Source: Methanothermococcus sp. Ax23
Lineage (GTDB): Archaea > AGJL01 > Methanococci > Methanococcales > Methanococcaceae
Assembly: GCF_049075655.1 (NCBI RefSeq)
Contig: NZ_CP157522.1
Span: forward strand, 1,440,001 to 1,504,000
Direction: 5' to 3'
DNA: 64,000 bases
Translations under genes and position numbers: made by a program
Shown: positions 12,739-59,712 of the stretch, piece after piece
How the letters are laid out: the number at the start of each line of letters is the position of its first letter
Numbering within the stretch: the first letter of the stretch is position 1
Notes under the pieces: generated by a model
Told to the model about the DNA's origin: nothing
Databases searched by the model: none
The model's input: only the letters and a program-made list of their open reading frames with translations

Positions 12739-12808
12739 TAAAAGAGAGCGTGAAATATACATAAAATCGAAGATTTTATATTTTTTCACTAAAAGAAAGA
12801 GCGTGAAA
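12739..12808. repeat. imperfect direct duplication flanking a cGAAg hairpin
   Basis: TAAAAGAGAGCGTGAAA (12739-12755) and TAAAAGAAAGAGCGTGAAA (12790-12808) around ATAAAATC-GAA-GATTTTAT (12761-12779). Confidence 0.75.
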
Positions 12809-12810
12809 AC

Positions 12811-13992
12811 ATGGCAATATTAGGACTTGTAGGAAAACCAAATGTGGGAAAATCAACTTTATTCAACGCAATGACAGAAAAAGTGGCAGACATTGGAAAT
12901 TACCCATTTACAACAATAAATCCAAACATTGGAACATCCTTTGTGAGCTCACCCTGTCCATGTAAAGAATTAAACATCCAATGCAACCCAAATAATTCAA
13001 AATGTATTGATGGAATAAGATACATTCCTGTTGAAATAATAGATGTTGCTGGGCTCGTTCCAGAAGCTCATAAAGGAAAAGGTATGGGAAACAAATTTTT
13101 AGATGATTTGAGACAAGCTGATGCTTTTATTGTAGTTGTTGATGCAAGTGGTAAAACAGATTTAGAAGGAAATCCTGCTGAAAATCACGACCCAACCGAA
13201 GATGTTAAATTTTTATTGGATGAGCTCGACATGTGGATTTATGGAATTTTAACTAAAAACTGGGATAAGTTATCGAGAAAGGCACAACAGCAAAAAAACA
13301 CTTCAAAGATAATCTCTGAACAGTTAAGCGGGCTCAATATCTCAGAAGAACAGGTGGAAAATGCCATTCGTAATTTAGACGACAGCCCTATAAAATGGAC
13401 TGATGATGACCTTTTATATTTGGCAAAAACTCTCAGAAAGCTTTCAAAACCTATGATTATAGCCGCAAATAAAGCAGACCATCCCGATGCAGAAGAGAAT
13501 ATCAAAAAATTAAGGGAAGAATTTAAGGATTACATTGTAATACCAACATCAGCAGAGATAGAACTGGCATTGAAGAGAGCAGAAAAGGCGGGAATTATCA
13601 AATACGATAGAACTAAAAATGATTTTGAAATAATAAATGAATCATTAAATGACGCACAGAAAAACGCCTTAAACTACATGAAAGAATACTTAAAAAAACA
13701 TAATGGAACAGGCATACAGGAGCTCCTAAACAGAGCATACTTTGACCTATTGGATATGATTGTTGTATATCCCGTGGAAGATGAAAACAAATACTGCGAT
13801 AAAAAAGGAAATGTTCTTCCAGATGCCTATTTGGTAAAAAAAGGAACCACTGCAAAGGATTTGGCATTTAAAATACATACAGACATAGGAAATAAATTTA
13901 TATATGCCGTTGATGCAAGAAAGAAAATAAGAATTGGTGCAGACCAAGAGTTGAAGGATGGAGATATAATAAAAATCGTATCTGCGGCTTAA
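12811..13992 (+). CDS. Obg/YchF-family translation-associated GTPase with TGS domain
   Basis: GKPNVGKST, YPFTTINPN, DVAGLV, ANKAD, C-terminal IHTDI TGS. Confidence 0.92.
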   Translation: MAILGLVGKPNVGKSTLFNAMTEKVADIGNYPFTTINPNIGTSFVSSPCPCKELNIQCNPNNSKCIDGIRYIPVEIIDVAGLVPEAHKGKGMGNKFLDDLRQADAFIVVVDASGKTDLEGNPAENHDPTEDVKFLLDELDMWIYGILTKNWDKLSRKAQQQKNTSKIISEQLSGLNISEEQVENAIRNLDDSPIKWTDDDLLYLAKTLRKLSKPMIIAANKADHPDAEENIKKLREEFKDYIVIPTSAEIELALKRAEKAGIIKYDRTKNDFEIINESLNDAQKNALNYMKEYLKKHNGTGIQELLNRAYFDLLDMIVVYPVEDENKYCDKKGNVLPDAYLVKKGTTAKDLAFKIHTDIGNKFIYAVDARKKIRIGADQELKDGDIIKIVSAA

Positions 13993-14029
13993 TATTAATT
14001 ATTAATTATATATTATTTACGGTGATATA

Positions 14030-14362
14030 ATGGAAAATGAAGCAAATAAAGAAATAATCGAAAATATGAAGTGCCCAATATGTGGTGGAGATGACTGCAT
14101 AAAAAAATCTGCTGTCGAGCTCTACCTCAACATGATAAAAATGTTCTTCAAATACCAAGATAAAGACAGCGATATAACTTATAGAAAATACCCAACAGTT
14201 GGGGAAATAGGAGAGTGCAAAAAAACATTTAAAAGAATATGGCTTTGCCCATACTGTAAAAAACCATTTGAATCAAACTACGAACTGGGAAAGGTCGTGG
14301 TCAAATGTCCGCACTGTGATGAAACATTATGTATTCCAGTTTCAAACAGAACCTTTTGCTAA
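14030..14362 (+). CDS. zinc-ribbon hypothetical protein
   Basis: CPIC, CPYC, CPHC pairs; GGTGAT RBS. Confidence 0.75.
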   Translation: MENEANKEIIENMKCPICGGDDCIKKSAVELYLNMIKMFFKYQDKDSDITYRKYPTVGEIGECKKTFKRIWLCPYCKKPFESNYELGKVVVKCPHCDETLCIPVSNRTFC

Positions 14363-14404
14363 TCTATTTTTTAAAATAAAATAAATAAAATGAAAATAAA
14401 ACAT

Positions 14405-14875
14405 TTATTTTTTCCTTTTTTTAATGACCTTATCAAATAACTCATCAGGAGTAGGTTTTTCCGCCCCTAGGTATTTAACAACAAGGGAGCCGTATTTTAA
14501 ATACTCCTCTTCAACAGGTAAATCCCCAACGAATAATCCGGGGCAATTATTTAAAAACCATCCATCATAAGTTAATACCAATTTTCCATTTTTCAGCTGT
14601 GGAGAATATGGTCTTAATCTGCAAATTAGCGGTCTTACTTTGTATATGGAGCATTTATTATTTTTTAAAAATACGCATTTACCTTTAATTTCTTTCAACT
14701 CGCCGTATGTTCCATCAAAATATGTTAAATATTTTTTAACCGTTTCTTCAAATGGTATTTTTAAATAACCGCTTATATTTGCTATATCCTTTTTTGTTAT
14801 TGTTGGGGAATCACAGCATTTTCCACACATTCTGCATGTCCATGCTATTCCTTTTGTATCTGCCTTAATTTTCAT
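14405..14875 (-). CDS. YkgJ-family CxxCxxCC cysteine cluster protein
   Basis: CRMCGKCC, CVFL, CSIYKVRPLICRLRP. Confidence 0.88.
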   Translation of the reverse strand: MKIKADTKGIAWTCRMCGKCCDSPTITKKDIANISGYLKIPFEETVKKYLTYFDGTYGELKEIKGKCVFLKNNKCSIYKVRPLICRLRPYSPQLKNGKLVLTYDGWFLNNCPGLFVGDLPVEEEYLKYGSLVVKYLGAEKPTPDELFDKVIKKRKK

Positions 14876-15033
14876 GTTTTCACTTTTTAAATAGTAGTTG
14901 CGAATTTTTCTTATTTTTCCTTTTTTATTTTTGACTAATATTGATTAATTTTGTAATTTAATGAAATTCTTTTTAAGTTTTATAAGTTCGAAAGACCTCC
15001 GGTTTCCTGAATGGTGATTATGTAAAAAACCTT

Positions 15034-15855
15034 TTAAGTTTTAGGTTTTTGTTGCTCACCTACTTTATAAGCAAGTTGAAAATCGCTTCGATAACCAATT
15101 CCTTCGGAATTTATTCCAGTCGGTGAGTCCAAATGATTGGCTTTGATTTCGGTAGTAGTATTTTTTTCACATATTCTTGCACATACGCCATAATGCCCCG
15201 ATAAATAGTTAAGTGCATTGTGTATTTTTAAATGAATATTTTTAGGAAGTCGATATAGAATATATGCAAATATTACCCCAGTAATTACATCAACAATCCA
15301 GTGCTGTCCCATAAATAGGGTCGAAATTGGTATTAATATACCCAGTGCATAGAACAAATACCTTATTTTGCTTTTTTCATCTTTAAAATGCAGTGCCATG
15401 AGAACAGAGTATGCAGTATGCAGGGAAGGAATTTCATAAGTAGGTTTTGTAAATATCCACAAGTAAGGAGTATTTACTAAATCCTGTGCAACACCAACTT
15501 GGAATGGAGATTGAACTATAAAAAATGTATAAATTAACCCTGCTATGAGCCATCCAAGTGCAATATCTATTAAAATTATATCTGCTTTTAGATAATTCTT
15601 TTTTATAATCAAATAATAGCCGATTCCTCCAACTACGCAAATTGTAAATAAATACATATAAACTATTCTAAAAAATTCCACTATCCAATATGGTGATGTT
15701 TGAAGAATATGATAAAATTTAGCATTGCATAAGGGAATATAATGCAAATAATTGGTAAAATCAAAGGGGGTAATTATTTGGGAATACCACATTAATCCCC
15801 CCCACATAATATAGGCAATAGGGTATGTAATTAATCTTATTTTTATCATTTTCAT
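15034..15855 (-). CDS. PAP2-superfamily (Aur1/IPC synthase-like) membrane protein
   Basis: IPSLHTA and HWIVDVITG motifs; C-terminal tail overlaps hairpin modules. Confidence 0.8.
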   Translation of the reverse strand: MKMIKIRLITYPIAYIMWGGLMWYSQIITPFDFTNYLHYIPLCNAKFYHILQTSPYWIVEFFRIVYMYLFTICVVGGIGYYLIIKKNYLKADIILIDIALGWLIAGLIYTFFIVQSPFQVGVAQDLVNTPYLWIFTKPTYEIPSLHTAYSVLMALHFKDEKSKIRYLFYALGILIPISTLFMGQHWIVDVITGVIFAYILYRLPKNIHLKIHNALNYLSGHYGVCARICEKNTTTEIKANHLDSPTGINSEGIGYRSDFQLAYKVGEQQKPKT

Positions 15856-15862
15856 AATATCC

Positions 15863-16918
15863 CTATGGGAAGTATGTATCCAATTCTTTAATACAGGAGC
15901 TCACCAACTTAACAGTTTCATCTAAATCAGATATACCAATTACTTCAACAGGAGTGTGTATATATCTTGAAGGAACTGAAATCACACCAGTTGGAATACC
16001 GTCTCTCGTTAGGTGAATTGCAGTAGCATCTGTTGTTCCACCTTCTCCAACTTCATACTGAACAGAGATATTGTATTTCTTTGATACTTCTTTTATCATA
16101 TCTAAAACCTTTGGATGAGTAATTAAACCTCTTCCAGAAGCATCCACTATACCGACTACTGGACCCTTACCTAATTCAACAGGAGCATCTTCCATTTTTA
16201 TACCCGGATGGTCTCCACAGATTGTCACATCAAGTGCAAGTGCCACATCTGGATTAATGCCAAAAGCTGATGTTCTCGCACCCTTTAATCCAACCTCTTC
16301 CTGAACAGTTCCAACGAAATATATTTGGCAATTTAATTCCATTTCGCTCAATTCCTTTGCAACTTCCAATAAAACAGCACATCCTGCTCTGTCGTCAAAT
16401 GCCTTACATGATATTCTGTTGTTGCCGAGCTCATCAAAATCTGATTTAAATGAAATCCATGAGCCTATCTCTACACCCATATTTTGAGCGTCTTCTCTAT
16501 CTTTTGCCCCAATATCAATAAACATGTCCTCGTATTTTATTAATTTATTTCTTTCACTTTCTTTCATTTTGTGCGGTGGTTTTGAACCTAAAACACCTAC
16601 AATATCCCCTTTGTCAGTATGAACAATTACTTTCTGGTTTAAAAGCATCTGGTCATTTATTCCTCCAATTTTTGTGAATTTTAAGAATCCTTTATCGTCT
16701 ATGTATTTAACCATCAATCCAATTTCATCCATATGTGCCGCAAGCATTATTTTAGGTCCCTTATTTCCTTTTTTTGCAATTAAGTTTCCAAATTTATCTG
16801 TATATACCTCATCGCAGTATTTTTTAAGCTCTCTTTCCATTATGGTTCTTATTCTATCTTCCCTTCCTGAAATACCTTCTGCTGTTGATAGTTCCTTTAA
16901 ATAATCAAGCACAGCCAT
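15863..16918 (-). CDS. M42 family (TET-like) aminopeptidase
   Basis: [33 protein letters not shown]. Confidence 0.93.
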
Positions 16919-17010
16919 TATATCACCTTTTTTAGATTTTAGCAAAAAATATTAAAAATATTATTAAATACGCAAAATACAAGTATGATATTATAATATA
17001 TAACAATTAC

Positions 17011-17328
17011 GATAAACCGCCGAGAAAGCCAACGATTTTAATCGTTGGATGAGAGGCGGACATTATATCGGCTAGTAAGTAGTAAAATATAAATATGAGA
17101 AGATTAATAGTAAGTAACGCTACCAGTCCAAGTTCTAATGGGTAGGGTTAGTGAAAACTCTACCGCTGGTAGTGGTTGGTATCGTGGTTTGTTTTGATAG
17201 AGTAATCTTAGTGATACAGCGTAGCCCTGAATCTCCTAAACGGGGATAGGGGTAGTGGGCTTGGCCACCCATGTAGGGTTAAACCCTGCTAAAAGAACCC
17301 AACGAGTTCACTCGTTGGAGTAGGTCAG
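17011..17328 (+). mobile_element. non-autonomous IS200/IS605 mini-element (same family as 58246-59712), carrying an omega-RNA-like region
   Basis: preceded by TTAC; LE AAAG + CCAACGATT/AATCGTTGG hairpin; RE GAAC + CCAACGAGT/ACTCGTTGG hairpin ending TCAG; both ends near-identical to those of the tnpB element. Confidence 0.92.
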
Positions 17329-17361
17329 AATATGGTGAATAGGTATAAAATATTTATTGAA

Positions 17362-17757
17362 TTATTCCTGCAATTCAAAATAATTCTTCTGCTTAACAAC
17401 TATTATAGGGATGCCCATATCAATAAGCCTTCTTTTTAAATCCTTGTCATTTGTGCATACAACGATTTTATTGCCCTTATCCTTTTGGTATTTTGCATAG
17501 TTTATTATTATCTCATCGGCATACTTTCCAATATTGTAATCATCTGTTTTATATTTTTTAATTAAGGATAATAATAGATTTATTGAAAATTTCTCCTTAC
17601 CTTTTAATTGGGTTTTAAGTTTTTCCAATTCTTCCCTTATGCAATTGAGTATTATAACTTCATAATTATTTAATATTCTGTCGAGCTCATAATCTATATT
17701 TATATTATGTTTAATGGCATATATTAAAAAATTTGTATCTGGTATTACTATTATCAT
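17362..17757 (-). CDS. PIN-domain protein (Fcf1/Utp24-like)
   Basis: VIPDTNFL, ADEII, VCTNDKDLKRR motifs. Confidence 0.88.
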   Translation of the reverse strand: MIIVIPDTNFLIYAIKHNINIDYELDRILNNYEVIILNCIREELEKLKTQLKGKEKFSINLLLSLIKKYKTDDYNIGKYADEIIINYAKYQKDKGNKIVVCTNDKDLKRRLIDMGIPIIVVKQKNYFELQE

Positions 17758-17765
17758 TTTATCAC

Positions 17766-18145
17766 GACTCCTTCGGCAGGAAGCCAACGGCTCCGCAACG
17801 AAGTTGCGACCTAAAACCTTCGGTTTTAAGTTTTCCTCACTTTCGTTCGGAAATGCTATAAAAATCCGAAGGATTTTTATTCAATTAGCCGTTGGAGGAT
17901 GCCGAAAAATTTATATGTTGTATAAACTATATATTGTAATAAACCCTAAGGCACGAAGCTCGGTAGAGTGGATACGGTTGGAAGGGCACATATTAAATGT
18001 GATATTTATAGGGCTGTTGTCAGCCAGCCTAATGTCCTCCGCCCTTATTATTGAGGGAGTTGGATTGAATAAATTCCTTCGGAATTTATAGCTCTCCGCT
18101 TCGCTACGAAGGGCAAGCCAACGACTTTAGTCGTTGGTAGCTGAC
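17766..18145 (+). mobile_element. second-family non-autonomous IS200/IS605 mini-element with nested hairpin insertions
   Basis: preceded by TCAC; LE GAAG + CCAACGGCT...AGCCGTTGG; RE CAAG + CCAACGACT-TT-AGTCGTTGG ending TGAC; guide/cleavage tetramers fit the IS608-type pairing rule. Confidence 0.85.
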
Positions 18146-21130
18146 TTAGGAATTAGTTATTACTGAATCCTCTCCAATCTTTTTTATGTTTATAATATTA
18201 TTTGCCACCTGTTCCAATTCGTTGTGGTGAGATATTACAAAAATCTGAGAAATGGTTTTTATGTTTCCAAAGATGTTTAACAGTTTTTTACGCCTATCTT
18301 CATCAAGGAATGCCGTTGGTTCGTCCAGTATTATACATTGTAGATTATTACAAACCGCTTTTGCTATTCCAAGCCTAAGTGCAAGGGATACTGCTATCTG
18401 CTCACCACCACTTAAAGTTTTTACAGGGAGCTCATCCACAATTATATCATAATCATTCTTAATTTGGATGTGGCTGTATGGCAATTCGAACTCATTAAAT
18501 ATTTCATTGGTGTATCTCTGAATAAGTGGAATATACTTTTCTCTTAAATACTGCTGAAATCCGTTCTTTGAAAAGACATTTTCCCTTATATCTATTAAAT
18601 AACCTATATAATTCTCCAATCTTTCCTTTTCTTTTTCTTTATCGTGCAATTCATTTAGATTATTTATTTGTTTTTGCAGTTGTTCCTCTTTGGAATTTAA
18701 ATATGATGTAATTTCTATAATCTGATTATTTGCATCATTTAATTTGTTGAATATTTTTTCATAATCCTCTTTTAATTTGTTGTGGTAGGTATTGTCATAA
18801 TTTAAATTATCCAGCTCTTCTAAAATATCTTTTTTGTTATCTTTTAATGATTCTATCTCTTTATTTTTATTATTTATAATCTCATTTACCGTATTTTCCA
18901 GTTTGTCAATATCTGTTCCGTATCTTTTGCAATAGTTTTCTAACACCGCAAGGGCATTTTTATATTTGCTGTAAGGTTCTTCATACATTTCCATTTCTTT
19001 TTCTATTTTGGATTTTTTCTGCTCTAATTTGATATATTGCTCTGCGTCTTTCTGTATGTTCTCGATTTCTTTTAAAGTATCAATTAACTCTTTTTCCTTA
19101 TTTTTTTTATCATTCATCAGTATTATAATATTATTTAATTTCCCCAAAACATCATTTAATTCCTTCCTTTTAGCATTTACCTTTATTCTATCATAATTGC
19201 CAACTATTTTCAAAAGATTGTTTTTATTTTCTAAAATTTCCTTTTCATTTGCATTTTTTAAATACTCCACACAAAAATTGTATTTGTTATAGTGCTTTTC
19301 TAAATCATTCTTTTTCTTTTCCAAATCTTCGATTTCCTTTTCAATGCTTACGTATTTGCTAATTTCCTTTCGGAGCTCATATAAATCATATATATGATTA
19401 TCTAAATCCCTATTTATATTTTCTAAATTCTCCTTTTTTTCCTTTAATTTTCCGTATTTGTCTTTTAATTTATTTATTTCTTCAAGCTTCTTTTTTAGTT
19501 CCTTTAATTCATTGTCATAATTGTTATATTTTTTGTTAAGTTTAATTAATACCCGTTCTTCCTTTTCAATATCATTGTGGTATGTGTTTAGGAGCTCCTC
19601 CTTTTTCTTCCCATCAATATCTGACTGACACACAGGACATTTATTATCGGTTTCTTTAAGTTTTTCAATTGCCTCTTTCATCTGGTTTATTCTTGTCTCC
19701 TTTTCAACTATTAATTTGTTAAGATTGCTTATTTTTTCCATTAATTCATCATGCTCTTTTATTAGCTCATTTTCAGTATTTATTTTACTTTCGATTTCAT
19801 CAAAATTTGATAGTTCTTTTAGGAGCTCCTCCTTTTTCTTCTTCAAGGTATCTATTTGAGAATTGATACTTTTTTCTTTTTCCTTTAATTTCCCAAAATC
19901 TACAAGTTTTGCATTTAATTCATTTAATTTTTTATTTAATTCTAAATATTCATAATAATATTTTTCATTATTTTTTAATTCTAGTTTATTTTTATTTATC
20001 TCGTTTAGTCGATTGTTTATCTCGTTCAATTCCGTTAATTTTTCCATTACAATATCTAAATTATTAAGTTCTTTTTTAATATTTTCAATATCTTTGTTTA
20101 TTGTTTCAATGTCTTTGTTTTCTGGATTAAGGTTCTTTAAATTGTTTTCAATATCCTTTAAGTTATCTTCCAAATTTTTCTTTGTGCCTCTTAATATATT
20201 GAATTTATCGTAATATTCCTTATATTTTATAATCTCATTAGATAGTTCCTTTAATTTCTCTTCAATTTCATTGTATTTTATATATCCTTCGTTATTTTCC
20301 ATTAAAATTTCACTGTATTTGTTAATGTCTATTAAGTCTTTATTTAAACTACCAATATCTTTTTCAAGAGTTTCTATTTTATGCCCTATTTCTGTCAATA
20401 TTTTATTTAAATCGTTGAATTTTTTTTCCTTTTCATCATAATGATTTAACTCTTCTTTCTTTTTTGCCTCTAATTTTTTAATGTGCTCGTATTTATTTTG
20501 CAGTTCTTTTAATTCCTTTTCCTTATATGATATTTCTTCTTTTAAATTGTTTATATCTTCCTTTATAATATCAATTTGCTTCAACTCCCCCTTTATATAC
20601 TCCAATTTACCATTGAAATTATTAATTGCCTTCCCCATCTCTTCCCAAGTTTTCTCGTATTTTTCAATGCCAAGAAGCTTACCAATAAGTTTCTTTCTTT
20701 CCGCTGGTTTGAGATTTATAAGATTGCTAATCTCCCCCTGTTTTATGTAAATTGCATTTAAAAATACCTCGTGGTCTATTCCAAGTATTTCCCTTACTTT
20801 ATTATTTACTTCATTATTGCCCTCTGCATAAAGTTTATCATTTATATAGAGCCTATCCACATTACTTCCCCTTCCCCGTCCCCTTACAATTTTATACTCG
20901 TTTCCTCCTATTTCGAATGTGAGCTCTATTAAAAATTGGTTGGTTCCCCTCTTTTTTAAGTCCTCAATTCTAGCGCTGCCTCTTGCATATAGTGCGTAAT
21001 TCATGGCTTCAAATATTGACGATTTTCCACTTCCATTCTGACCTATTATAGTGGTGATTCCTTTATTAAATGATATTTTGGTGTTTTTATGACTTCTAAA
21101 ATTCTTAATGTCAATTCCCTTTATTATCAT
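18146..21130 (-). CDS. rad50: DNA double-strand break repair ATPase Rad50
   Basis: GQNGSGKSS, coiled coil with CPVC zinc hook, LSGGE, LDEPT. Confidence 0.96.
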   Translation of the reverse strand: MIIKGIDIKNFRSHKNTKISFNKGITTIIGQNGSGKSSIFEAMNYALYARGSARIEDLKKRGTNQFLIELTFEIGGNEYKIVRGRGRGSNVDRLYINDKLYAEGNNEVNNKVREILGIDHEVFLNAIYIKQGEISNLINLKPAERKKLIGKLLGIEKYEKTWEEMGKAINNFNGKLEYIKGELKQIDIIKEDINNLKEEISYKEKELKELQNKYEHIKKLEAKKKEELNHYDEKEKKFNDLNKILTEIGHKIETLEKDIGSLNKDLIDINKYSEILMENNEGYIKYNEIEEKLKELSNEIIKYKEYYDKFNILRGTKKNLEDNLKDIENNLKNLNPENKDIETINKDIENIKKELNNLDIVMEKLTELNEINNRLNEINKNKLELKNNEKYYYEYLELNKKLNELNAKLVDFGKLKEKEKSINSQIDTLKKKKEELLKELSNFDEIESKINTENELIKEHDELMEKISNLNKLIVEKETRINQMKEAIEKLKETDNKCPVCQSDIDGKKKEELLNTYHNDIEKEERVLIKLNKKYNNYDNELKELKKKLEEINKLKDKYGKLKEKKENLENINRDLDNHIYDLYELRKEISKYVSIEKEIEDLEKKKNDLEKHYNKYNFCVEYLKNANEKEILENKNNLLKIVGNYDRIKVNAKRKELNDVLGKLNNIIILMNDKKNKEKELIDTLKEIENIQKDAEQYIKLEQKKSKIEKEMEMYEEPYSKYKNALAVLENYCKRYGTDIDKLENTVNEIINNKNKEIESLKDNKKDILEELDNLNYDNTYHNKLKEDYEKIFNKLNDANNQIIEITSYLNSKEEQLQKQINNLNELHDKEKEKERLENYIGYLIDIRENVFSKNGFQQYLREKYIPLIQRYTNEIFNEFELPYSHIQIKNDYDIIVDELPVKTLSGGEQIAVSLALRLGIAKAVCNNLQCIILDEPTAFLDEDRRKKLLNIFGNIKTISQIFVISHHNELEQVANNIINIKKIGEDSVITNS

Positions 21131-21265
21131 TATCCCACCGATTTGGTTATTTTAGTTATAGTTATAGTTAGTTATTAGTTATTTTATCGTTGCTTCATTA
21201 TTTTTTTATTATTTTAATTATTTTAATTATTTTTATTATTTTTTATCTTATTCCTACCTATTTTT

Positions 21266-22447: not shown

Positions 22448-22556
22448 AATATTTTATACTTCGTATTCGCATGTAATTATTCATGTGTAATTAATATACA
22501 TTATTATATTATTACTTAGTTTATTAATTTATTTATTTTTCATCCATGGTGAGATT

Positions 22557-32110: not shown

Positions 32111-32265
32111 TTTTGAACAATATAAGGTGATATGATGAAATTCTTAATACTCGATGGATGGTCGAACCAAACCTTTAAAAAAGGTTTGGACGAAAATTCA
32201 AAACTCACTTCGTTCGTTTTGAACAATATAAGGTGATATGATGAAATTCTTAATACTCGACGGAT
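32111..32265. repeat. 49-bp direct duplication flanking a 57-nt double-hairpin insert
   Basis: 32111-32159 equals 32217-32265 with one mismatch. Confidence 0.95.
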
Positions 32266-33815
32266 ACACCGATGAACCTGCTGGACTTGGAGTTCCACCA
32301 TATATAGGAACATATCCAAGATATGCCGCAGGTGTCATTTATAAATATAACTATGATGTGCATTATATAACTATCGATAGGTTAAGGGAAGAGATTAAAA
32401 AAGGATTTGATTTTAACAAATTTGATGTAGTCATAGTAATTTGTGGATTTCACACTCCTGGAAAATACCTGAATGCAAATCCCGCAACATTGAGGGAAAT
32501 TGTATCAATTTTATATGATTTTAAAGGATTAAAAATATTAGGGGGTCCTGTTGCAACAAAATTTGGTTCATCGATGGAAGGGGGAAAAATAAAAGACGAA
32601 GAAAAGCTCAAATACTTCTTTGATGTCGTGGCTAGTGGAGACCTTGAAATAGTTTTATCTGATTTAATTGAGAATAATTTCAATATTGAAAAAATAAATC
32701 CTGAAAAATTAAGAAATTACAATCAAATAAAGGAATTTGCAATTAGAGGAGCAAAAATTGTAAAGCAACATCCTGACTATCCTTACATCATTGCAGAAAT
32801 TGAAACATACAGAGGATGTTCAAGAAATACAAGTGGAGGATGTAGCTTTTGCACAGAGCCGAGAAGGTTTGGAAGTCCAAAATACAGAGATGAGAGAGAC
32901 ATAATTGAAGAGGTTAAAGAATTGTATTTAAACGGGATAAAATATTATAGAATAGGGCGACAACCATGTATTTTTTCATACAAGGCGAAAGATAGTGAAA
33001 AGGAGGAGCTCCCAAAACCAAATGTTGATGCAGTTGAAAGATTGTTTAAAGGTATATGTAATAATATTAAACCTGAGGTTTTACATATAGACAATGCAAA
33101 TCCTGCTATAATAGCAAGGCATGAAGATGAGAGTAGGGAAATTGCAAAAATACTTGTAAAATACTGCACAGGAGGAAATGTTGCGGCTTTTGGTGTTGAA
33201 AGTTTTGATGAGAAGGTAATTAAAAAGAATAATTTATTAACCACTCCTGATGATGTTTTAAAAGCTGTAAAAATATTAAATGAAATTGGAGGTAGTAGGA
33301 GCTCAACAGGTCTTCCCTATTTACTTCCCGGCATAAACTTATTATTTGGATTAAGGGGGGAAACAAAGGAAACATTCAATATAAATTATGATTATTTAAA
33401 ACAAATATATGATAGCGGATATATGATAAGGAGAATAAATATAAGGCAAGTTGTCCCATTTTTCGGCACAGATATAAGTATAAACGACATTAAAAAAGCA
33501 AAGAAAAGAAAAAAATTGTTTTTAAGCTTTAAGGAAAAAATCAGAAAGGAAATTGACAATCCAATGCTAAAAAGAGTAGTTCCAGAAGGAACTGTATTAA
33601 AAGATGTATTTGTTGAAGTTATGCAAATCAAAGATTTGCAAAATCCTTCGCTATCGCTCAGGATAAAGGAAAAGGAAACTCTTTATTTTGGGCGACAGTT
33701 TGGGAGCTATCCTATATTGGTTGGTATAATAGATAATGAATTAAAACTTAAAAGTTTCGTTGATGTTGAGATAACAGGATATGGTAGAAGGTCTATAACT
33801 GGAAAACCAATTTAA
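32238..33815 (+). CDS. radical SAM protein with C-terminal TRAM-like domain
   Basis: RGCSRNTSGGCSFC, DGYTDEPAGLGVPPY, DVEITGYGRRSITG. Confidence 0.88.
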   Translation: MMKFLILDGYTDEPAGLGVPPYIGTYPRYAAGVIYKYNYDVHYITIDRLREEIKKGFDFNKFDVVIVICGFHTPGKYLNANPATLREIVSILYDFKGLKILGGPVATKFGSSMEGGKIKDEEKLKYFFDVVASGDLEIVLSDLIENNFNIEKINPEKLRNYNQIKEFAIRGAKIVKQHPDYPYIIAEIETYRGCSRNTSGGCSFCTEPRRFGSPKYRDERDIIEEVKELYLNGIKYYRIGRQPCIFSYKAKDSEKEELPKPNVDAVERLFKGICNNIKPEVLHIDNANPAIIARHEDESREIAKILVKYCTGGNVAAFGVESFDEKVIKKNNLLTTPDDVLKAVKILNEIGGSRSSTGLPYLLPGINLLFGLRGETKETFNINYDYLKQIYDSGYMIRRINIRQVVPFFGTDISINDIKKAKKRKKLFLSFKEKIRKEIDNPMLKRVVPEGTVLKDVFVEVMQIKDLQNPSLSLRIKEKETLYFGRQFGSYPILVGIIDNELKLKSFVDVEITGYGRRSITGKPI

Positions 33816-43880: not shown

Positions 43881-43883
43881 TAA

Positions 43884-49946: not shown

Positions 49947-50080
49947 ATCATTTTAAATCATTTTTTAATTATATATAAATATTAGTGGATATAAATTACA
50001 TAAATTAACTAAAATAAATAGTATTAATATTTAAGTTAGCAATCCTTAGAATTTGCTTAAATAATTAAAAGGGTAATATC

Positions 50081-50782: not shown

Positions 50783-50826
50783 GAAAATAAATATTAGTAT
50801 AATACACAAATAAATTTGGTGATAAA

Positions 50827-51432
50827 ATGTATATCGGTAGATTCTTAGTAGTAGGAAAGACAGAAAATGGAAAACCTTTTGTATCATACAGAGTTTCAAG
50901 TAGAAGTTTTCCAAATAGAAAAGCAGTTTTAAAGGACAATACGGTATCAATTATACCTAATGATTTAAACGAAATATTTTCTAACCCATATATTACATAC
51001 AACTGTATAAAAGTCGTAGATAATACAATAATTGCAACAAACGGTTCCCAAACTGATGTAATAGCTGATAAAATTAAACTGGGGCTTCCAATAAGGGATG
51101 CATTAGCATATTCCTTAATCACGATGGATTATGAAAAGGATGACTACAACACACCAAGAATAGCAGTAGTTTTAAATGATAGCGAATGTTATATTGGATA
51201 TGTAAGACACGATGGCATGGGCGTTGAAAAGGTTGAATTGGAAAATGGAAAAGGATACTACATAGGAGTTTATAATTCATGTAAAATATCAAATAATCAA
51301 ATTATAGATGTTGTTGGAGAAGAGCCAGAAGAAATTTGTAAATATATAATGGAATATAATGAATTTGAACATCCAGTATGCTGTGCGGCAGCTGTTATTG
51401 ATGGTGGAAAAATAAAAATAGAAACATTATAG
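50827..51432 (+). CDS. purO: archaeal IMP cyclohydrolase
   Basis: [29 protein letters not shown]. Confidence 0.95.
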
Positions 51433-51481
51433 TTTTTTAGAAATTCTTATTTTTTAGTTTATTTTATTGTATTTATTATCA

Positions 51482-52504: not shown

Positions 52505-53016
52505 GTAATCACCGAAAATGAGCAGTATATCTTTTTATATATCTAATCTTATATAATAACCTAATTTATGAAAATTTATCAATCCAATATATGCAAATTG
52601 GTATATAAATATTACATAAGTGAGATATAAATTCTATAACTAATTAAACAGTTCATACCACCTAACAAAATTTTTGAAGATATATAGTTTAAAAGACTAT
52701 ACAATATGGTTCGATTATTTTTTAAATTAACTCGATATTATTAAATAATAAAAATCCCTAAGGCAGCTTTTTTCCCCAATATCTATTCCTGGCAATTTAC
52801 AATTTTTCCCAGCCTCTTATGTTAAAATAAATATATGATATCAATCTTCATTTAAATATATGATTGTTATGTTTCAATTTTTCATTTGATTTAAATCGAA
52901 AACTTTATATATAAGATGGTTGTTTATAGTAGTGTATGTAGAATACATAACCATAAATAACTAACATTTAAATACTTTAAAAACAAAACTATATTTGTAA
53001 TTAATAGGGTGATACT

Positions 53017-53700
53017 ATGGAGATTAAAGAACTCGGTAAAAAGATGGAAGAATTAATGGGATTAGAATACCCAGCAGTTGCTGTAAAACTTGTAAAATCC
53101 AGCGAAGAAATACCAGAAGGATATAACGAACTTGAAGAACAGGCAAGACATTGTGAAATGATTCAAATTGCAAGAAAGGAGGGTAAAAAATTCTATGCTA
53201 CAATTGATAAGCACATGTGTAAAGGAGGGGCTTATGCAATAGGTGTTCTACACGATGCACCAGAACCATTGGCAACAGGTAAATTATACCACAAATTAGG
53301 AAACTTTGCAACCGAAGATGGGGCGGTAAAAACAGTTGGGGCAATTCCAAAAGTAAAAGAACAGATGTATGCAAGCGTCTATGCACCATTGAGTGATGCA
53401 GACTTTAATCCAGATTCAATAGTTGTAATTACCTCACCAAAGAAAGGGTTGAGATTGGCTCAGGCATTGTTATATAAAGAAGGTGGAAGATTCCAGGCAG
53501 ACTTTGCAGGTATCCAATCATTATGTGCTGATGCTGTTGCAGCTGTTAAAGTTAGAGGCGTAGCAAATGCAACACTTGGATGTAATGGTTCAAGAAAATA
53601 TGCTGAAATAGACGATGGTGAAATGATATTCGCATTCCCACCATCAGAATTGGAAAATATAATCGAAGCATTAGAGCACTTTAAGGAAATTTGGGGATAA
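53017..53700 (+). CDS. DUF169 family protein
   Basis: PAVAVKL, HCEM, QSLCADAV, LGCNGSR. Confidence 0.82.
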   Translation: MEIKELGKKMEELMGLEYPAVAVKLVKSSEEIPEGYNELEEQARHCEMIQIARKEGKKFYATIDKHMCKGGAYAIGVLHDAPEPLATGKLYHKLGNFATEDGAVKTVGAIPKVKEQMYASVYAPLSDADFNPDSIVVITSPKKGLRLAQALLYKEGGRFQADFAGIQSLCADAVAAVKVRGVANATLGCNGSRKYAEIDDGEMIFAFPPSELENIIEALEHFKEIWG

Positions 53701-53765
53701 ATATATCCCCTAATATATTAATACCTGATAAATAAAATAAATACAAAAATAAAGGGTGATTATAA

Positions 53766-54014
53766 ATGGTAAAAATAGAGGTATTCACATCACCAATGTG
53801 CCCACACTGTCCAGCGGCAAAAAGAGTAGTTGAAGAAGTAGCATCAGGAATGGAAGGCGTAGAAATTGAACATGTAGATGTAATGAAAGAACCTGAAAGA
53901 GCCGCAAACTATGGAATAATGGCAGTGCCTACAATAGTAATTGATGGGGAGGTTAAATTTGTAGGAGCTCCTACAAAGGAAGCATTAAAGGATGAGCTCG
54001 CTAAATACTTGTAA
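53766..54014 (+). CDS. archaeal thioredoxin/glutaredoxin-like protein
   Basis: SPMCPHC, AVPT, FVGAP. Confidence 0.92.
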   Translation: MVKIEVFTSPMCPHCPAAKRVVEEVASGMEGVEIEHVDVMKEPERAANYGIMAVPTIVIDGEVKFVGAPTKEALKDELAKYL

Positions 54015-54100
54015 TATAATAATTACAATGAATTATTATATTACATTATTATAAGCAGTTGTGCAAATATATGACATAACTTCAATAAATTGTGGAGATT

Positions 54101-54286
54101 ATGAAATTAGTCATTATTTGTAAAGACGATACTAAAAATAAAAAATCAGAAAATGAAAATTTAATTATAAAATGTGGTATATGCAGGGGAGAAGACACTA
54201 AAACCACAATTAAGATGATTATGGAAGATTATGGGGATGAAATAGACGAAATAGTTTATCCAAATTGTAATATTGTTAAAAAATAG
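54101..54286 (+). CDS. small Cys-containing hypothetical protein
   Basis: GGAG RBS, CGIC motif, co-oriented within the cluster. Confidence 0.55.
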   Translation: MKLVIICKDDTKNKKSENENLIIKCGICRGEDTKTTIKMIMEDYGDEIDEIVYPNCNIVKK

Positions 54287-54311
54287 TATTATTTGTTAAG
54301 AGGGTGATTAT

Positions 54312-55130
54312 ATGATAAGAGAAATTTCTGTTAAATGTTTAAGAAGTCCAGAGTTGCTAGTGGATGCAGTATTAAGCAAAATGAATGAAGGATTATTAAT
54401 TGTCGAGACAGATGGGGAAGAACAGATAAAAGTTATAGAAAATCTTGTAAAAAAACTTGGATACAAGATGGAAGTTGATGGAAACAAAGTAAAAATACAT
54501 GTTGGTGAGATTGTGGCATCAAAAACATTAAATGTAGTTGGAGCAACCTGTCCTGGACCTATAATGATGGTTTCAGATATTCTTGAAAAGATGGAAGTTG
54601 GAGAATTGTTGGAAATAACCGCAAGTAAAAACGCACTTACGGATTTGACAGAAGGATTAAAAGGTATGGGTCATGAGGTTTTATCTGTTGAAGAGCTCGG
54701 TGATGGAAATTATAAAATATTAATCAAAAAAGGAGAGAAAAAAGAAGAAGGGGCAGCATCTGTAAATATTGATGAAGTATTTATAATAAACACCACAGGA
54801 ACGGGGAATGCAGAAAAGGCATACTCCACATTTATGATGGCAGATATTGCTCAAAAGATGAAATTAAAACCTACAATATTTTTAATGCTCGATGGTGCAA
54901 GTTTGGCACAGAAAGGAGAATGCGACAAAGTTAAGCATCCGGCATTTCCAAAATTAAGCGAATTGGTAAAAAATGCGCTTAACAGCGGTGTAAAAGTATA
55001 TGTCTGTGAATTAAGTGCAGAATTCAGAGGCATCAGTCAGAAAAATTTGGAAGATGGATTTGAAATTGCAGGAGCTCCTACATTCTTTAACTACCTGTCA
55101 AAGCCAAATGTCAGACCAGTATGGTTGTAA
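54312..55130 (+). CDS. TusA/SirA + DsrE domain fusion (sulfur relay-like)
   Basis: GATCPGP TusA motif; FLMLDGA and VYVCE DsrE motifs. Confidence 0.8.
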   Translation: MIREISVKCLRSPELLVDAVLSKMNEGLLIVETDGEEQIKVIENLVKKLGYKMEVDGNKVKIHVGEIVASKTLNVVGATCPGPIMMVSDILEKMEVGELLEITASKNALTDLTEGLKGMGHEVLSVEELGDGNYKILIKKGEKKEEGAASVNIDEVFIINTTGTGNAEKAYSTFMMADIAQKMKLKPTIFLMLDGASLAQKGECDKVKHPAFPKLSELVKNALNSGVKVYVCELSAEFRGISQKNLEDGFEIAGAPTFFNYLSKPNVRPVWL

Positions 55131-55139
55131 GGTGATATT

Positions 55140-55472
55140 ATGAACGAAATTATCTCTTTAATATCCTTGTCGGTAATTTTCGGAAGCATGCTTTCGGGAT
55201 TTGCCACATTTAGGATGACAGGGATGAGGTTAATGCCCCATTTCGTAGTACTCATACTTGCATTTGTATTTACATTGGCCTCCCTGATAATTGATAATAA
55301 TATTGTATTCTATATTGCAATAGCATTACAAATAATTACACCATTCACCATATGTGGAACGATATGCAATATACTAAAAACCCAATTCCAAAATACAGGA
55401 ATTTATTCCGCACATTTAGGATTTATGGGAATTATGCTAGTTCTCGCAATTGGAAACCTATTAATTGGTTAA
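55140..55472 (+). CDS. hypothetical membrane protein
   Basis: 110 aa, about 4 TM segments, AGGTGAT RBS. Confidence 0.75.
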   Translation: MNEIISLISLSVIFGSMLSGFATFRMTGMRLMPHFVVLILAFVFTLASLIIDNNIVFYIAIALQIITPFTICGTICNILKTQFQNTGIYSAHLGFMGIMLVLAIGNLLIG

Positions 55473-55537
55473 ATTCTATTTTTTCTTTTAATTTTAAATT
55501 ATATTACAGATTATATGTTCATTAGTTTTTACGGGAT

Positions 55538-55625
55538 TTAACTACCTCGACTAATCAAAAAACCTGGTTTTACAACTCACAGTAGGCTTCGTTCATTACG
55601 GAGTTTGGCTCCTGCCTAGGGAGTC
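55538..55625 (-). mobile_element. degenerate IS200/IS605 end remnant
   Basis: minus strand TCAT-GACTCCCTAGGCAGGAGCCAA resembles the LE at 17762 (TCAC-GACTCCTTCGGCAGGAAGCCAA); GAAGCCTAC...TTAGTCGAGGTAGTT resembles an RE. Confidence 0.5.
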
Positions 55626-55682
55626 ATGAAGTAAAAGTTATATATTTTCAAAAGATAATATCTTTTAAAAAAAGGTAGTAAT

Positions 55683-56243
55683 ATGTTAGAACCAATTGTT
55701 AATTTAGATATTAACTTATTATATTATATAAATAGCATAAATTATCATTTACTAAATATTTTAATGGTTTTTATAACCAATACAACCTATTTGTTCATTC
55801 TTTTAGTAATGGCACTTTTATTCTTCAAAAACAGGGAAGTATTTTTAAATATATTCATCGTTATGGCATTAATTGCCATTACTGCCTATGCCTTAAAATA
55901 TGGTATAAATGAACCAAGACCTTATTTTGTATTAGATAATCTTCATGTGCTTGTGCCTATGGAAAACGAACCATCATTTCCAAGCGGACATACAACATTT
56001 GCATTTGGATTATGGTGTGCTATAACACTAAATTTAAAGAAAATGAATATTAAAAAAGAATTAAATATGACCGTTCCACTTGTTTTGTTAATATGGGCAT
56101 TTCTTGTAGCTTTCAGCAGAGTATATGTCGGAGCTCACTATCCACACGATGTTATTGGGGGAATGATATTGGGTGTTGTAGGAGCTCTCATATATACTAA
56201 AATTATTCCCGATAAAATCTTAAAAAATACTGTATTTTCCTAA
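55683..56243 (+). CDS. PAP2-family phosphatase (undecaprenyl/dolichyl pyrophosphatase-like)
   Basis: KYGINEPRP, SFPSGH, SRVYVGAHYPHD. Confidence 0.92.
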   Translation: MLEPIVNLDINLLYYINSINYHLLNILMVFITNTTYLFILLVMALLFFKNREVFLNIFIVMALIAITAYALKYGINEPRPYFVLDNLHVLVPMENEPSFPSGHTTFAFGLWCAITLNLKKMNIKKELNMTVPLVLLIWAFLVAFSRVYVGAHYPHDVIGGMILGVVGALIYTKIIPDKILKNTVFS

Positions 56244-57122
56244 ATGCTTTATATATGAAACGTGATTTTTCAGAGCCCCCATGAGCTCATCTTCATCTTT
56301 TGGAGTTTCATAATCTATATAAAATATATAATTTCCAAGCTTTCTTTTTGAAGGTCTCGATTCTATTCTGGTTAAATTAATGCCGCGGTTATTAAACTCT
56401 TTTAAAACATCGTATAAAGCACCAGGTCTATTTTCTTTTAATTCAAGTATTATTGTGGATTTTTGTTTAAGTTTATTATCGGCATGATTCTGATTATTAT
56501 GATTATAATCATTGTTGGTTTCCTTATTTTCATTGGATTTAAGTTCGTTTATTTTTAATATGTTATCCAAAGATTTTGAATTCTCATTTCCAATTAAAAT
56601 AAATCGTGTGGTGTTATTTGGATAATCCTGAATATCTTCATCAAGCACTTTTAAATTATACAATTCAGCAGTTTCTTTTGAAGCTATTGCCCCAAATTCT
56701 TCGTTTTTCATTTCAAATACTTTTTTAACAGCTTTCGCAGTGCTTAAAACTGGTATTGTCTCCCATCCGTGTTTTTTTATATATTTCCTACACTGTGCCA
56801 ATGCCTGTGGATGGGATAATATTTTTTTTATTTTATTTTTATCATATCCAATTAAACAGTGGTTTATATTAATATCCACTTCTCCATATATTTTAACTGG
56901 AAACTCCAACAGTAAATCCTGTGTTAAGGACACCGAACCTTCTATGGAATTTTCAGAAGGAACCACGCCGTAAATATTATTATCTTCCTTTTCCATATCC
57001 ACGAGCTCGAAAACTTCATATATGGAATTGCAGTAAATAATATCTTTATCATTTATTAGTTTTGAAAATATTTCAGCCGCTTTTCCCGTATAACTTCCCG
57101 CAGGTCCCAAACAATAAATCAT
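56220..57122 (-). CDS. pheA: prephenate dehydratase
   Basis: LGPAGSY, ENSIEG, SHPQALAQC, NTTRF, LTRIESRP. Confidence 0.95.
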   Translation of the reverse strand: MIYCLGPAGSYTGKAAEIFSKLINDKDIIYCNSIYEVFELVDMEKEDNNIYGVVPSENSIEGSVSLTQDLLLEFPVKIYGEVDININHCLIGYDKNKIKKILSHPQALAQCRKYIKKHGWETIPVLSTAKAVKKVFEMKNEEFGAIASKETAELYNLKVLDEDIQDYPNNTTRFILIGNENSKSLDNILKINELKSNENKETNNDYNHNNQNHADNKLKQKSTIILELKENRPGALYDVLKEFNNRGINLTRIESRPSKRKLGNYIFYIDYETPKDEDELMGALKNHVSYIKHLGKYSIF

Positions 57123-57204
57123 ATATTCACCATATTTCTTTTTTGTTTCTTTCTTTTAAATCCTTTTTTCTATTATTTTTCTATACTTTTTATCTTTTTC
57201 ATTT

Positions 57205-57924
57205 TTATTTTTCCTTTTTCAGAACGACATATAAAAATTGACCTTTTCTTTTAAATATTCTGCCTAATTTACTGTCCAATCCATTGTAAAATACATTTGA
57301 GATTTTTTCTAAAATCACCGTTGGAAATACTTTTAAAATGGGCGGAATGAAATAAAAAGTTTTGTAATCTTTTAAATAAAATCCCTCAGTATTGAAATCT
57401 TTTAAACATAATGGTTTATGATATATTGTGAAATCATTAAAAATTTCCTCATTTATAAAACTTTCACTATTCACAACAACAAATATTGCGATTCCATCAT
57501 TTTTTAAAACCCTTTTTATCTCATTTAGTGCATTTTTGTAATCTATTATATGCTCTAAAACATTTATACACAAAACTAAATCAAAAGAACCATTTTTAAA
57601 AGGAAGATTTGAAACATCTCCGCAGATTTTGTTTGTTTTTAAATTATGGATATTCTCAAATTTTTTTAATAAATTAAATGAAAAATCAAGATAAAGGGTA
57701 TTCAGATTTTTTGTTAAATTATAAAAGGAACCAAATCCACATCCGCAATCTAATATTACAGCATTTTTTTTCTTTTTAATATTGTTAAAATCCTCTAAAT
57801 TGGTTATTATATCTACAATTAGTTTTTCCTCCAATTCCATCAATATTTTAATATACTTTGGAAGGTTTTCCACCTCCCAATTTTCATAAAAATCTTTTAT
57901 TTTTTTATCCGCCCCATTATTCAT
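57205..57924 (-). CDS. class I SAM-dependent methyltransferase
   Basis: ILDCGCGFG, LPFKNGSFD, VLEHI. Confidence 0.88.
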   Translation of the reverse strand: MNNGADKKIKDFYENWEVENLPKYIKILMELEEKLIVDIITNLEDFNNIKKKKNAVILDCGCGFGSFYNLTKNLNTLYLDFSFNLLKKFENIHNLKTNKICGDVSNLPFKNGSFDLVLCINVLEHIIDYKNALNEIKRVLKNDGIAIFVVVNSESFINEEIFNDFTIYHKPLCLKDFNTEGFYLKDYKTFYFIPPILKVFPTVILEKISNVFYNGLDSKLGRIFKRKGQFLYVVLKKEK

Positions 57925-58210
57925 AAATCTCACAATTTAAGCTATAAACAATAGTATCCTCTGGAAAGAGATTCTTAATTTTTTCTTTAATTTCATCGAG
58001 CTCAGCACTACTTAACATCTCATCGATTTCTTTATCAAGTGTAAATCCACATCTGTAATAGTATGTATCTCCAACTACTGCCCCAATTTCTGGAAACTCC
58101 AATGACCTTGTGATAATATCTTCTCCAACTATTTCTATGATTCCCTTTAATATGTTTTCAAAATCTATTATTTCTTTATTGTAAAATACTCCATCAATCA
58201 TAATCTTCAT
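57917..58210 (-). CDS. hypothetical acidic protein
   Basis: ATG 58210 after GGTGA; the longer ORF-track start lies inside the IS end. Confidence 0.7.
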   Translation of the reverse strand: MKIMIDGVFYNKEIIDFENILKGIIEIVGEDIITRSLEFPEIGAVVGDTYYYRCGFTLDKEIDEMLSSAELDEIKEKIKNLFPEDTIVYSLNCEIYE

Positions 58211-58245
58211 TTTTTCACCGAATTTATGTTTGTATTTTCTTTTCT

Positions 58246-59712
58246 CTGACCTACTCCCACGACTAAAGTCGTGGGGTTCTTTAGTAGGGTCTAACCCTAC
58301 ATGGGTGGCCAAACCCACTACCCCTATCTCCGTTTAGGAGATTCAGGGCTACGCTACATGAAAATACTTTTTTCAAAATATTCAAAGCACCATTAACATC
58401 AGCATTCAAAACCATACCACACTCACTACAAACATACAAACCCCTATACTTTCTATTGCTCTTTTTAACTACACCACAATTACTGCAAGTTTGAGAAGTA
58501 TAAGCTTCATTAACCTGTTCTACTGTTAATCCCTTTTCCTCTGCTTTATACTGTATCATACTTACTAACCTACCAAAAGGTATCTTGTGTATTTTCTCGT
58601 TGTTCTTTCTACCAATATCAATACTTGAAATGCCCTTGTTTAACTCACCGATTACAATCCTTGAAACTTTGTTATCCACTGCAAACTCAACAATCATTTT
58701 ACTAACCTTATGCAAATAATCCTTAGTATAATTCTTTTCTCTTACTGTTAAGCAGGATAATCGCTTATTATTCTTTAACTGTTTCCGTGTTAGTTTGGAC
58801 TGTAGTTCCCCCTTAGTTTTAGCAAACCATCGGAATTTAGAAATTAGTCTCCTTCCATCGTAGATTACTGCACTGCCCGTATTGGTTACTACTGTTGCTA
58901 AATTCTTAATTCCTAAATCAATACTTAATATATTACCTTCTTTGATAGGTTCTTGAATTACTGGTTTCTTATAGATTAAGTGAAGTATGTAGTAGGTTAT
59001 CCCGTAGATAGTCTGCGGAACTATCTCAACTTCTTTAACTTGCATGGTATCAAGCGGTAGAGTTTTCGATAACCCTACCCATAGATACCTGCACTTGATA
59101 CCATGCTTCTCTTTGAGATAGTTTTTAGTTTGTTTAGATAAGGATAATCTTAACTTATTGCCTATGATTTTGAAACCTTGCTTCTTCCATTTTACGGGAA
59201 AGTGTCCATCTTTTGGTTGGTATCGTGGTCTTTTAGTGTGTTGTTTGAAGTAGTTTTGCCATGCTATCGCTTGCGTAGCAAGCGAGCAACGAAAACCGAA
59301 GGTTTTCGTCTAATTGAGAGTTTTTGACATACTGCCTGTGCTGACTGTGAGTGCAGGTTTTTAAACCAGAAGTTATTCTTCATTTGAACATCTATCTTAC
59401 TAGGTTTAATGTTTCGTTGTATTACTTCGTAGTTAGATACATTCCAGAGTTTTGATGCTGAATAGGTTAAATGGTTTATGATTGTTAATTGTTCATTATT
59501 TAAACTTCTGGTTAGGTTTATTGTCAGCACTCTGGTTACTTGCATGGAATTCACCAAATTTATATATATGCTATTATTCTAATTACACTCATATATTATG
59601 TAGTGGAGTATATAAAAAAATGATGTCCGCCTATCATCCAATCTCATAAGAGATTTTACAAAACCTTGTTTTGTATAACGATTAAAATCGTTGGCTTTCT
59701 CGGCGGTTTATC
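58246..59712 (-). mobile_element. IS200/IS605-family element, tnpB only (IS1341-like)
   Basis: TTAC target 5' of LE (GTAA at 59713-59716); RE hairpin CCCACGACT-TT-AGTCGTGGG ending TCAG; no tnpA. Confidence 0.93.
58281..59545 (-). pseudogene. tnpB: TnpB RNA-guided nuclease, frameshifted by a 47-nt insertion
   Basis: SIDLGIKN, IGEL, CSNC..CSEC, NADVNGALNI; deleting 59266-59312 joins the two ORF pieces into about 405 aa. Confidence 0.92.

Follow-up and report, generated by a model that had tools for sequence, protein, structure and literature searches.

Several families of very small, probably mobile hairpin elements in the archaeon Methanothermococcus sp. Ax23

We investigated short DNA hairpins in a 64,000-nt stretch of the chromosome of Methanothermococcus sp. 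Ax23 (the window, C1:1440001-1504000 of genome G000; coordinates without a contig name are window positions). These sites are probably several families of very small non-autonomous mobile elements, each carrying from one to three mini-hairpins of a type that is stable when the DNA is single-stranded. The elements, 40-70 bases long, occur in this heat-vent methanogen and in some of its relatives. They insert into transposon ends, hairpin loops and intergenic DNA and, in frame, into genes, and they multiply along with the host transposon. The pairing of their stems is kept under sequence drift and their loops flip in place. Two of the families, A and B, enter cleanly, while the third, family M, brings a 16-73-nt duplication starting from a T-loop-like motif and forms tandem arrays. 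The folded single strands would be the acting form of the elements during replication or repair.

Hairpin enrichment and the insertions of the window

The genome, 98.9 % complete, consists of a 1.66-Mb chromosome (C1) and a second contig of 7.7 kb (C2), with a G+C content of 32 %. A hairpin was defined as a perfect stem of at least 6 bp with a 3-nt loop and a C-G closing pair around the loop, and counts were compared with nine Markov simulations, three for each of the orders 1, 3 and 5. The chromosome contained 116 c-GAA-g/c-TTC-g hairpins against 1-4 in the simulations; C-TTC-G (61) and C-GAA-G (55) are the two most frequent classes of stem of at least 6 bp with a 3-nt loop. Hairpins of the c-GTA-g/c-TAC-g type numbered 17, compared with 0-4. 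No enrichment over the simulations was found for c-GCA-g (4), c-GGA-g (4) or g-GAA-c hairpins. Neighbouring pairs separated by 1-7 nt were counted 99 times in the genome and 0, 3 and 5 times in three simulations. The density above background proposed in a preliminary description of the window was therefore confirmed. Several loops of the window itself are not of the GNA type: AAA at 33622 and at 32167, CTA at 18091, AAG and TTAT at 59641-59678.

The 133 GAA and GTA hairpins of the genome reduce to 63 distinct sequences; 76 of the hairpins stand in single-copy context, 15 lie in repeats of 2-4 copies and 42 in repeats of at least five copies. Reading-frame calls include 49 of them, in both orientations (sense-strand loops TTC 23, GAA 18). 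With eight such hairpins the window has about the genome-average density and is not special. When folded as DNA and compared with 200 shuffles each, seven of the eight window stretches folded better than every shuffle (z −3.6 to −6.1); the stretch at 15097 gave a z of −0.21, with 77 of 200 shuffles folding equally well. The motifs are those of stable single-stranded DNA, as the preliminary description had stated: one report gives melting at 71-76 °C and nuclease resistance for the GCGAAGC and GCGATAGC DNA mini-hairpins and places them at priming sites of phage origins (PMC13037366).

All eight sites of the window carry the sequences attributed to them, including the modules that recur between sites, and seven of the eight are proven or likely insertions. 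The clearest comparison is internal, among ten aligned copies of an insertion sequence (IS) encoding TnpB. In the window this is a tnpB-only IS200/605-family element (58245-59712, minus strand; target TTAC at 59713-59716, minus strand). Its tnpB reading frame is broken by a family-A double hairpin (ATTAG, hairpin, TGC, hairpin; 59267-59314, minus strand) that is present in seven of nine close IS copies and absent in two. The open frame measures 341-358 amino acids (aa) with this insertion and 415-426 aa without it. A second 48-nt double hairpin, found in three of the nine, adds 16 codons in frame, and in a diverged copy a similar element, its loop inverted, lies 25 nt away. At the left end of the IS a 38-nt double hairpin (59641-59678, minus strand) is missing from one full copy (c432) and from five miniature copies, including the window stretch 17007-17046, which match only positions 1-44. 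Both internal comparisons from which insertion had first been deduced, that of the tnpB frame and that of the left ends, thus stand.

Two miniature elements of the IS200/605 type lie on the plus strand of the window, each lacking in a sister genome. The first (17011-17329) joins the left and right ends of the TnpB IS, matching its positions 5-44 and 1366-1476 without the 38-nt double hairpin that most left ends carry; it stands directly after TTAC with no duplication and is absent in the sister genome G003. The second (17766-18145, 380 nt), absent in the sister genome G012, consists of a 251-nt core, of which a clean copy exists at C1:1266115-1266367, and of two additions. One addition, about 95 nt with four hairpins (17793-17885), is lodged in the loop of the left-end hairpin; the other, a 45-nt double hairpin (18065-18109), lies within the right end. 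The modular character ascribed to these sequences is borne out, and they nest. This hairpin region (17794-18111) adjoins a PIN-domain gene.

Within a radical-SAM gene, a 49-nt two-hairpin module (33619-33667, plus strand) is translated. Nine more distant radical-SAM relatives skip it, each aligning in two pieces. It is present in G003, decayed in G012, and has a 96 % identical copy at C1:1387522-1387570 in another gene and another reading frame.

The remaining intergenic and gene-end sites are less clear. Between divergent genes, a single c-GAA-g hairpin with an 8-bp stem (12761-12779) is accompanied by stretches of 16-19 nt that resemble it (12740-12755 and 12791-12809); it has an AAA loop in G003 and a shorter form in G012, and is therefore old and not a recent insertion. 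A G000-specific segment of about 270 nt at the 3' end of a PAP2-family gene (14890-15185, borders approximate; minus strand) lengthens the reading frame and includes a weak hairpin (15097-15111). This segment is absent in G003 and G012 and has no further copy in G000.

Two sister genomes supply empty alleles. From G003, about 92 % identical to G000, 1,034,371 nt were taken and 787,684 nt aligned, giving 357 indels of at least 12 nt, of which 49 bear GC-containing hairpins. By size, such hairpins were present in 1 of 236 indels of 12-29 nt and in 11 of 43 indels of 30-69 nt. A 48-nt A'-type element lies within a gene at C1:1064237 in G000 and not in G003, and genes of G003 alone hold a family-A element of 51 nt and a family-B one of 57 nt. 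At one site hairpins were added beside a pre-existing hairpin. Of the 11 hairpin indels that fall in reading frames, seven have a length divisible by three, and the other four are at gene ends or in ragged alignment; the in-frame insertions found measure 30-57 nt. Archaeal bulge-helix-bulge introns were considered for the in-gene copies and dropped, no such motif being seen by eye. The same comparison contains a 378-nt island in G000 (C1:560125-560504), nearly all concatenated hairpins with TCGA-like spacers, that is absent in G003.

Families A and B

Family A opens with ATTAG (or ATCAG) and then has two hairpins separated by TGC or TAC, the second of which starts with TC and ends with GA; it is 46-52 nt long. 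Family B reads CTTG, hairpin, AAGTC, hairpin, TCGA. The conserved ends and spacers of these two families, and of family M, correct the preliminary statement that the hairpins have no common termini. Patterns were scanned over 40 Methanococcales genomes of 5 genera with reverse patterns as controls. The family-A pattern was found in 14 of the 40 genomes and four of the five genera, and the reverse-pattern controls gave 0. In G000 the strict pattern has 37 copies. There are 19 distinct two-hairpin versions of family A whose stem sequences differ and whose two stems are still paired, and at one orthologous site of two genomes (L047 and L066) the same stem carries a GAA loop in one and a TTC loop in the other. 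Family B has six copies in G000 and is also present in five other genomes; the same family-B element is found in three unrelated genes in one frame. No target duplication was seen for either family.

A bias of the hairpins towards IS605 elements, noted at first, turns out to be mostly hitch-hiking. Although 31 of the 37 family-A copies of G000 are located in IS or miniature-element copies, one insertion, in the right end of a miniature element, underwent amplification about 24-fold and that in tnpB sevenfold, so that the apparent bias comes from the amplified host-transposon copies.

These recurring modules bear on a reading in which each hairpin is newly synthesised at a break or stalled fork, by fold-back or by the template switching named in the preliminary description, and is not a copy of another element. 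One case agrees with it: a 49-nt insertion found only in G000 (C1:38671) opens with its flanking sequence in reverse complement and is accompanied by a duplication of 13 nt, the footprint of local fold-back copying. The flipping of loops in place would also suit such synthesis, as would the window copy of family M, whose hairpin A has a 3' arm that matches its target-derived 5' arm, and the existence of hairpin-free tandem duplications of 46-50 nt. The common modules, however, keep their ends, spacers and stems at unrelated places in four genera and lack a local template; the empty sites hold no half-template, and the cases examined are the opposite of one arm pre-existing in the empty allele. 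We consider fold-back synthesis a very unlikely origin for the families, although the local inverted duplication at C1:38671 stands as a single instance.

Beyond the order, a pattern scan of all species gave 71 hits, about the chance number as estimated by hand. Four look real, three in Methanothermococcus or Methanocaldococcus records and one in a contig binned as Bacteroidales. The latter (L215) carries a complete family-A element, by binning error or by transfer. Viral contigs gave 12 pattern hits; in none of them was the first hairpin paired, and a viral carrier was thus not found. In two genera, the family-A element of L058 (genome G037) and that of L065 (G010) have identical flanks over 60 nt upstream and about 90 nt downstream, which suggests a recently shared mobile segment.

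Family M and its target duplications

Members of family M measure about 66 nt and carry two hairpins, the first with tandem G.A pairs and tipped by GAA, GATA or GAAG, the second with a T-rich loop; the family occurs in G000, G003 and G012 only. Every locus examined has 16-73 nt of local target sequence as a direct repeat on either side of the element. The window copy lies just ahead of the radical-SAM gene (32159-32216, minus strand), with a GAA tip on hairpin A, which has the tandem G.A pairs, and the T-rich loop on hairpin B. On one side is a 48-nt target copy (32111-32158) that duplicates the ribosome site and first codons of the gene; on the other is the second copy (32217-32264), which holds the working start of the gene with its ATG at 32238. 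The two copies have 1 mismatch in 48. The element is present in G003, while G012 has hairpin A and the duplication without hairpin B.

Empty alleles show that element and duplication arrive together, as 63 + 22 nt at C1:535977 in G000 and, at a transfer RNA (tRNA) gene in G003, with a 25-nt duplication. In the G000/G003 sample five family-M insertions are specific to G003 and one to G000, and two of these genome-specific insertions hold a nested double hairpin. By hand count, eight of about 17 distinct loci are at tRNA genes, of which the window has none. At these eight tRNA loci the right-hand target copy starts exactly at the T-loop; seven of the eight show GTTTGAATC there in place of the GTTCAAATC or GTTCGAATC of the tRNA. 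The other loci likewise have a right copy whose first 5-10 bases disagree with the left one. An origin of the tRNA duplications from a tyrosine integrase was rejected: the duplicated stretch is locus-specific and includes the trailer.

We propose that the 3' tail GTTTGAATC of family M would anneal to a T-loop-like site and be extended; strand displacement by the upstream strand would then set the length of the duplication, and the hairpin flap, resisting flap removal, would become ligated in. Displacement followed by flap ligation would give a duplication of variable length. A bolder version, to which we give a low probability, makes family M a new kind of prokaryotic mobile element, free of any transposase: a nuclease-resistant hairpin oligonucleotide with a 9-nt T-loop-like tail. 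The oligonucleotide would prime on the lagging-strand template at tRNA genes and their look-alikes and be sealed as an uncleavable flap, and such priming and capture would yield both the 16-73-nt duplications and tandem arrays of 112-132 nt. More broadly, DNA of c-GNA-g mini-hairpins might spread in AT-rich genomes through survival of nucleases and capture at nicks.

Tandem arrays of family M were observed in the three genomes. In G000, seven perfect 112-nt units (C1:869077-869921) each consist of the element and the last 48 nt of a gene, and the array is followed by a decayed unit and then by the left end of an IS. G012 has three 132-nt and two 112-nt units, and G003 has two units. A further small hairpin element, in which a stem beginning GGGAAAAACC is followed by TACTGTTATCACCATA, was inserted in G003 only (L034:4930 and L102:10671) with target duplications of 23-24 nt.

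The position of family M, often just after genes and tRNAs, and the T-run in its hairpin B could be read as signs that the hairpins are not mobile DNA but signals that the host retains, for example as transcript ends, to stabilise RNA or to bind proteins. At C1:535977 family M supplies a stop codon, and the hairpin at 12761 is conserved in three genomes. Against this, the elements come and go between genomes 92 % identical, lie in both orientations within genes, are translated in different frames and break tnpB, and the Rfam search over the window, at the gathering threshold, gave no match to the hairpin elements. We regard this explanation as highly improbable. The sole Rfam match was a C/D-box small RNA, sR2 (RF01139, 55 bits), at 9072-9126 on the plus strand.

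Search for a mobilising enzyme and relation to known repeats

A HUH/RAYT-like enzyme had been suggested as the mobiliser. The corresponding reading, that the sites are units like repetitive extragenic palindromes (REP) or REPINs, or minimal IS200/605-like units, moved as single strands by a Y1 HUH transposase (TnpA or the REP-associated RAYT), accounts for several features: the insertions are clean and without duplication, the 5' TTAG before the palindrome is conserved and resembles the GTAG of REPs, some hairpins stand beside IS200/605 elements that insert after TTAC, and the hairpin loops in which nesting occurs are single-stranded. The distribution of the enzyme goes the other way. Y1_Tnp (PF01797) gave no match in G000, while its positive controls matched in six of 14 genomes. 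Of the 40 genomes, the only ones with an intact copy are G014, G023 and G038, which are hairpin-poor (3, 2 and 5 hairpin-pattern hits); the hairpin-rich G037 (65 hits), G039 (31) and G000 (46) have none, and G010 and G003 have fragments only. In addition, the insertion points have no conserved base context, no likeness to the resident IS ends is seen, and 49 of the 133 hairpins lie in reading frames, unlike REPs. Movement by a Y1 HUH transposase is therefore judged unlikely.

No match to a reverse transcriptase (RVT_1) was obtained in G000, G003, G012 or G010. Y2_Tnp (PF04986, IS91-type) gave no match in five genomes, its controls being silent everywhere. The copy number of TnpB does not track the hairpin load, with 3 TnpB and 65 hits in G037 and 10 TnpB and 2 hits in G022. 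These searches thus gave no mobilising enzyme. On the 7.7-kb contig C2 lie two long frames, one of about 590 aa and one of about 670 aa, and no transposase-like frame was evident in it by eye. IS200/605-type miniature and tnpB-only copies were themselves inserted in G000 after the split from G003, at least five of them in the first 233 kb compared, yet G000 has no Y1 TnpA match; examples of such copies are those at C1:1520821-1521141, 1051227-1051605 and 1266115-1266367 and the one at 17011-17329 of the window.

Besides these absent Y1 and reverse-transcriptase matches, other observations weigh against reading the sites as families of mobile elements. No shared target word came to light for families A or B. 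The site at 12761 is common to three genomes, and that at 15097 is weak and lies within a larger unexplained insertion. Empty alleles alone are compatible with precise loss of hairpins; the direction of change rests on distant orthologues, and this for the radical-SAM site and the IS copies only. At the non-tRNA loci of family M the T-loop motif is matched at only 4-6 of 9 bases, by our own reading and with no chance control. Finally, the flap model of family M is inferred, no free element DNA, nick or intermediate having been observed.

Small non-autonomous mobile elements, as we take these to be, can be compared with known kinds. Those of the miniature inverted-repeat transposable element (MITE), the REP-RAYT system, the IS200/605 derivative and the short interspersed nuclear element (SINE) each fail in at least one defining feature. 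Terminal inverted repeats that match an autonomous element, as in a classical MITE derived from a DDE transposon, are lacking (family A begins ATTAG and ends GA, family B begins CTTG and ends TCGA), the two hairpins of an A or B pair differ from each other, and duplications of fixed length are not found, A and B having none and M a variable one of 16-73 nt. The opinion that these are not ordinary MITEs is upheld on these points, with the amendment that they form discrete families and are not free modules. Of the features of SINE-like elements, which enter by target-primed reverse transcription, a variable target duplication is seen in family M only, and reverse transcriptase was not found. Shared ends, a fixed word and the absence of a duplication, as in IS200/605 derivatives, are combined only in the elements at 17011-17329 and 17766-18145; the hairpin modules have varying 5' flanks and do not resemble the IS ends. 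With REP/REPIN and IS200/605 palindromes they have in common a short conserved 5' word, the lack of target duplication and a single-strand-like action, but there is here no Y1 transposase gene, no confinement to intergenic DNA and no likeness to IS ends. The elements are scattered and not in integron-type cassette arrays; no search for an integron integrase was made.

The overall behaviour is that of coding palindromic repeats, a repeat family being found both between genes and in frame in unrelated genes. Families MJRE1-3 of Methanocaldococcus jannaschii, reportedly described by Suyama, Lathe and Bork in 2005 and cited in PMC2229807 and PMC2996958, are said to be palindromic repeats averaging about 100 nt; to our knowledge neither target duplication nor tRNA targeting was reported for them. 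They belong to the same archaeal order, likewise lie between genes and in frame in genes, and have no known mobiliser. Family A, which is present in the sister family of genomes as well, could be identical with an MJRE group, form part of one or stand apart from them. The Rickettsia palindromic elements (RPE) are bacterial and 100-150 nt long. Elements of 46-57 nt built on c-GNA-g mini-hairpins differ from them, and share with them the in-frame palindromic insertion and the reading of the same element in different genes. A report on RPE and Wolbachia coding palindromes presents selfish palindromic DNA in frame in housekeeping genes (PMC2996958). Literature searches turned up nothing on these archaea; RepRanger (PMC12306157) only counts palindromes in two Methanocaldococcus genomes.

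The GC clusters of yeast mitochondria, the double-hairpin elements of Allomyces and the palindromes of green-algal organelles are also GC-richer hairpins in AT-rich genomes, which nest, cluster, sometimes lie in frame and move by no known mechanism; they differ in belonging to organelle genomes and in being unrelated in sequence. We know of no long target duplication described for these organelle clusters. The cyanobacterial small dispersed repeats (SDR), reportedly of 21-27 nt (Elhai and colleagues in 2008) and with an RNA intermediate said to have been proposed, resemble the present elements as mobile units of less than 60 nt that show compensating changes and nest in one another and in small transposons, whereas the motifs here are DNA-type mini-hairpins. 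In FEN1 (rad27) mutants, ligated flaps give duplications of tens of bases and variable length, and hairpin flaps give repeat expansion. The model proposed for family M is similar, hairpin flaps resisting removal; FEN1 events have no mobile insert and no fixed starting motif. Of what is described here, the way in which family M inserts is the likeliest to be new.

The movement of 40-70-base elements has posed a question ever since the description of RPEs, MJREs and organelle GC clusters. The present lineage offers sharply defined families and many filled and empty alleles between genomes 92 % identical, and the junctions of family M record its entry: the start is constant, at a T-loop-like motif, the duplication varies, and the joint holds mixed bases. 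Genetic manipulation is possible in relatives within the order, which opens the mechanism to direct tests. Proteins are lengthened by the elements by 10-19 residues, and TnpB elements, with their guide-RNA regions, are broken or remodelled by them.

Two larger differences from G003 were seen in the comparison. A 1662-nt segment within a gene (C1:1180448-1182111) is absent in G003, and its end appears intein-junction-like by eye. Another IS, about 1.15 kb long and bounded by terminal inverted repeats, carries a 140-aa frame and has five copies in G000 that are 99 % alike; the copy at C1:55512-56668 is absent in G003, and the frame of this IS contains a c-GAA-g palindrome.

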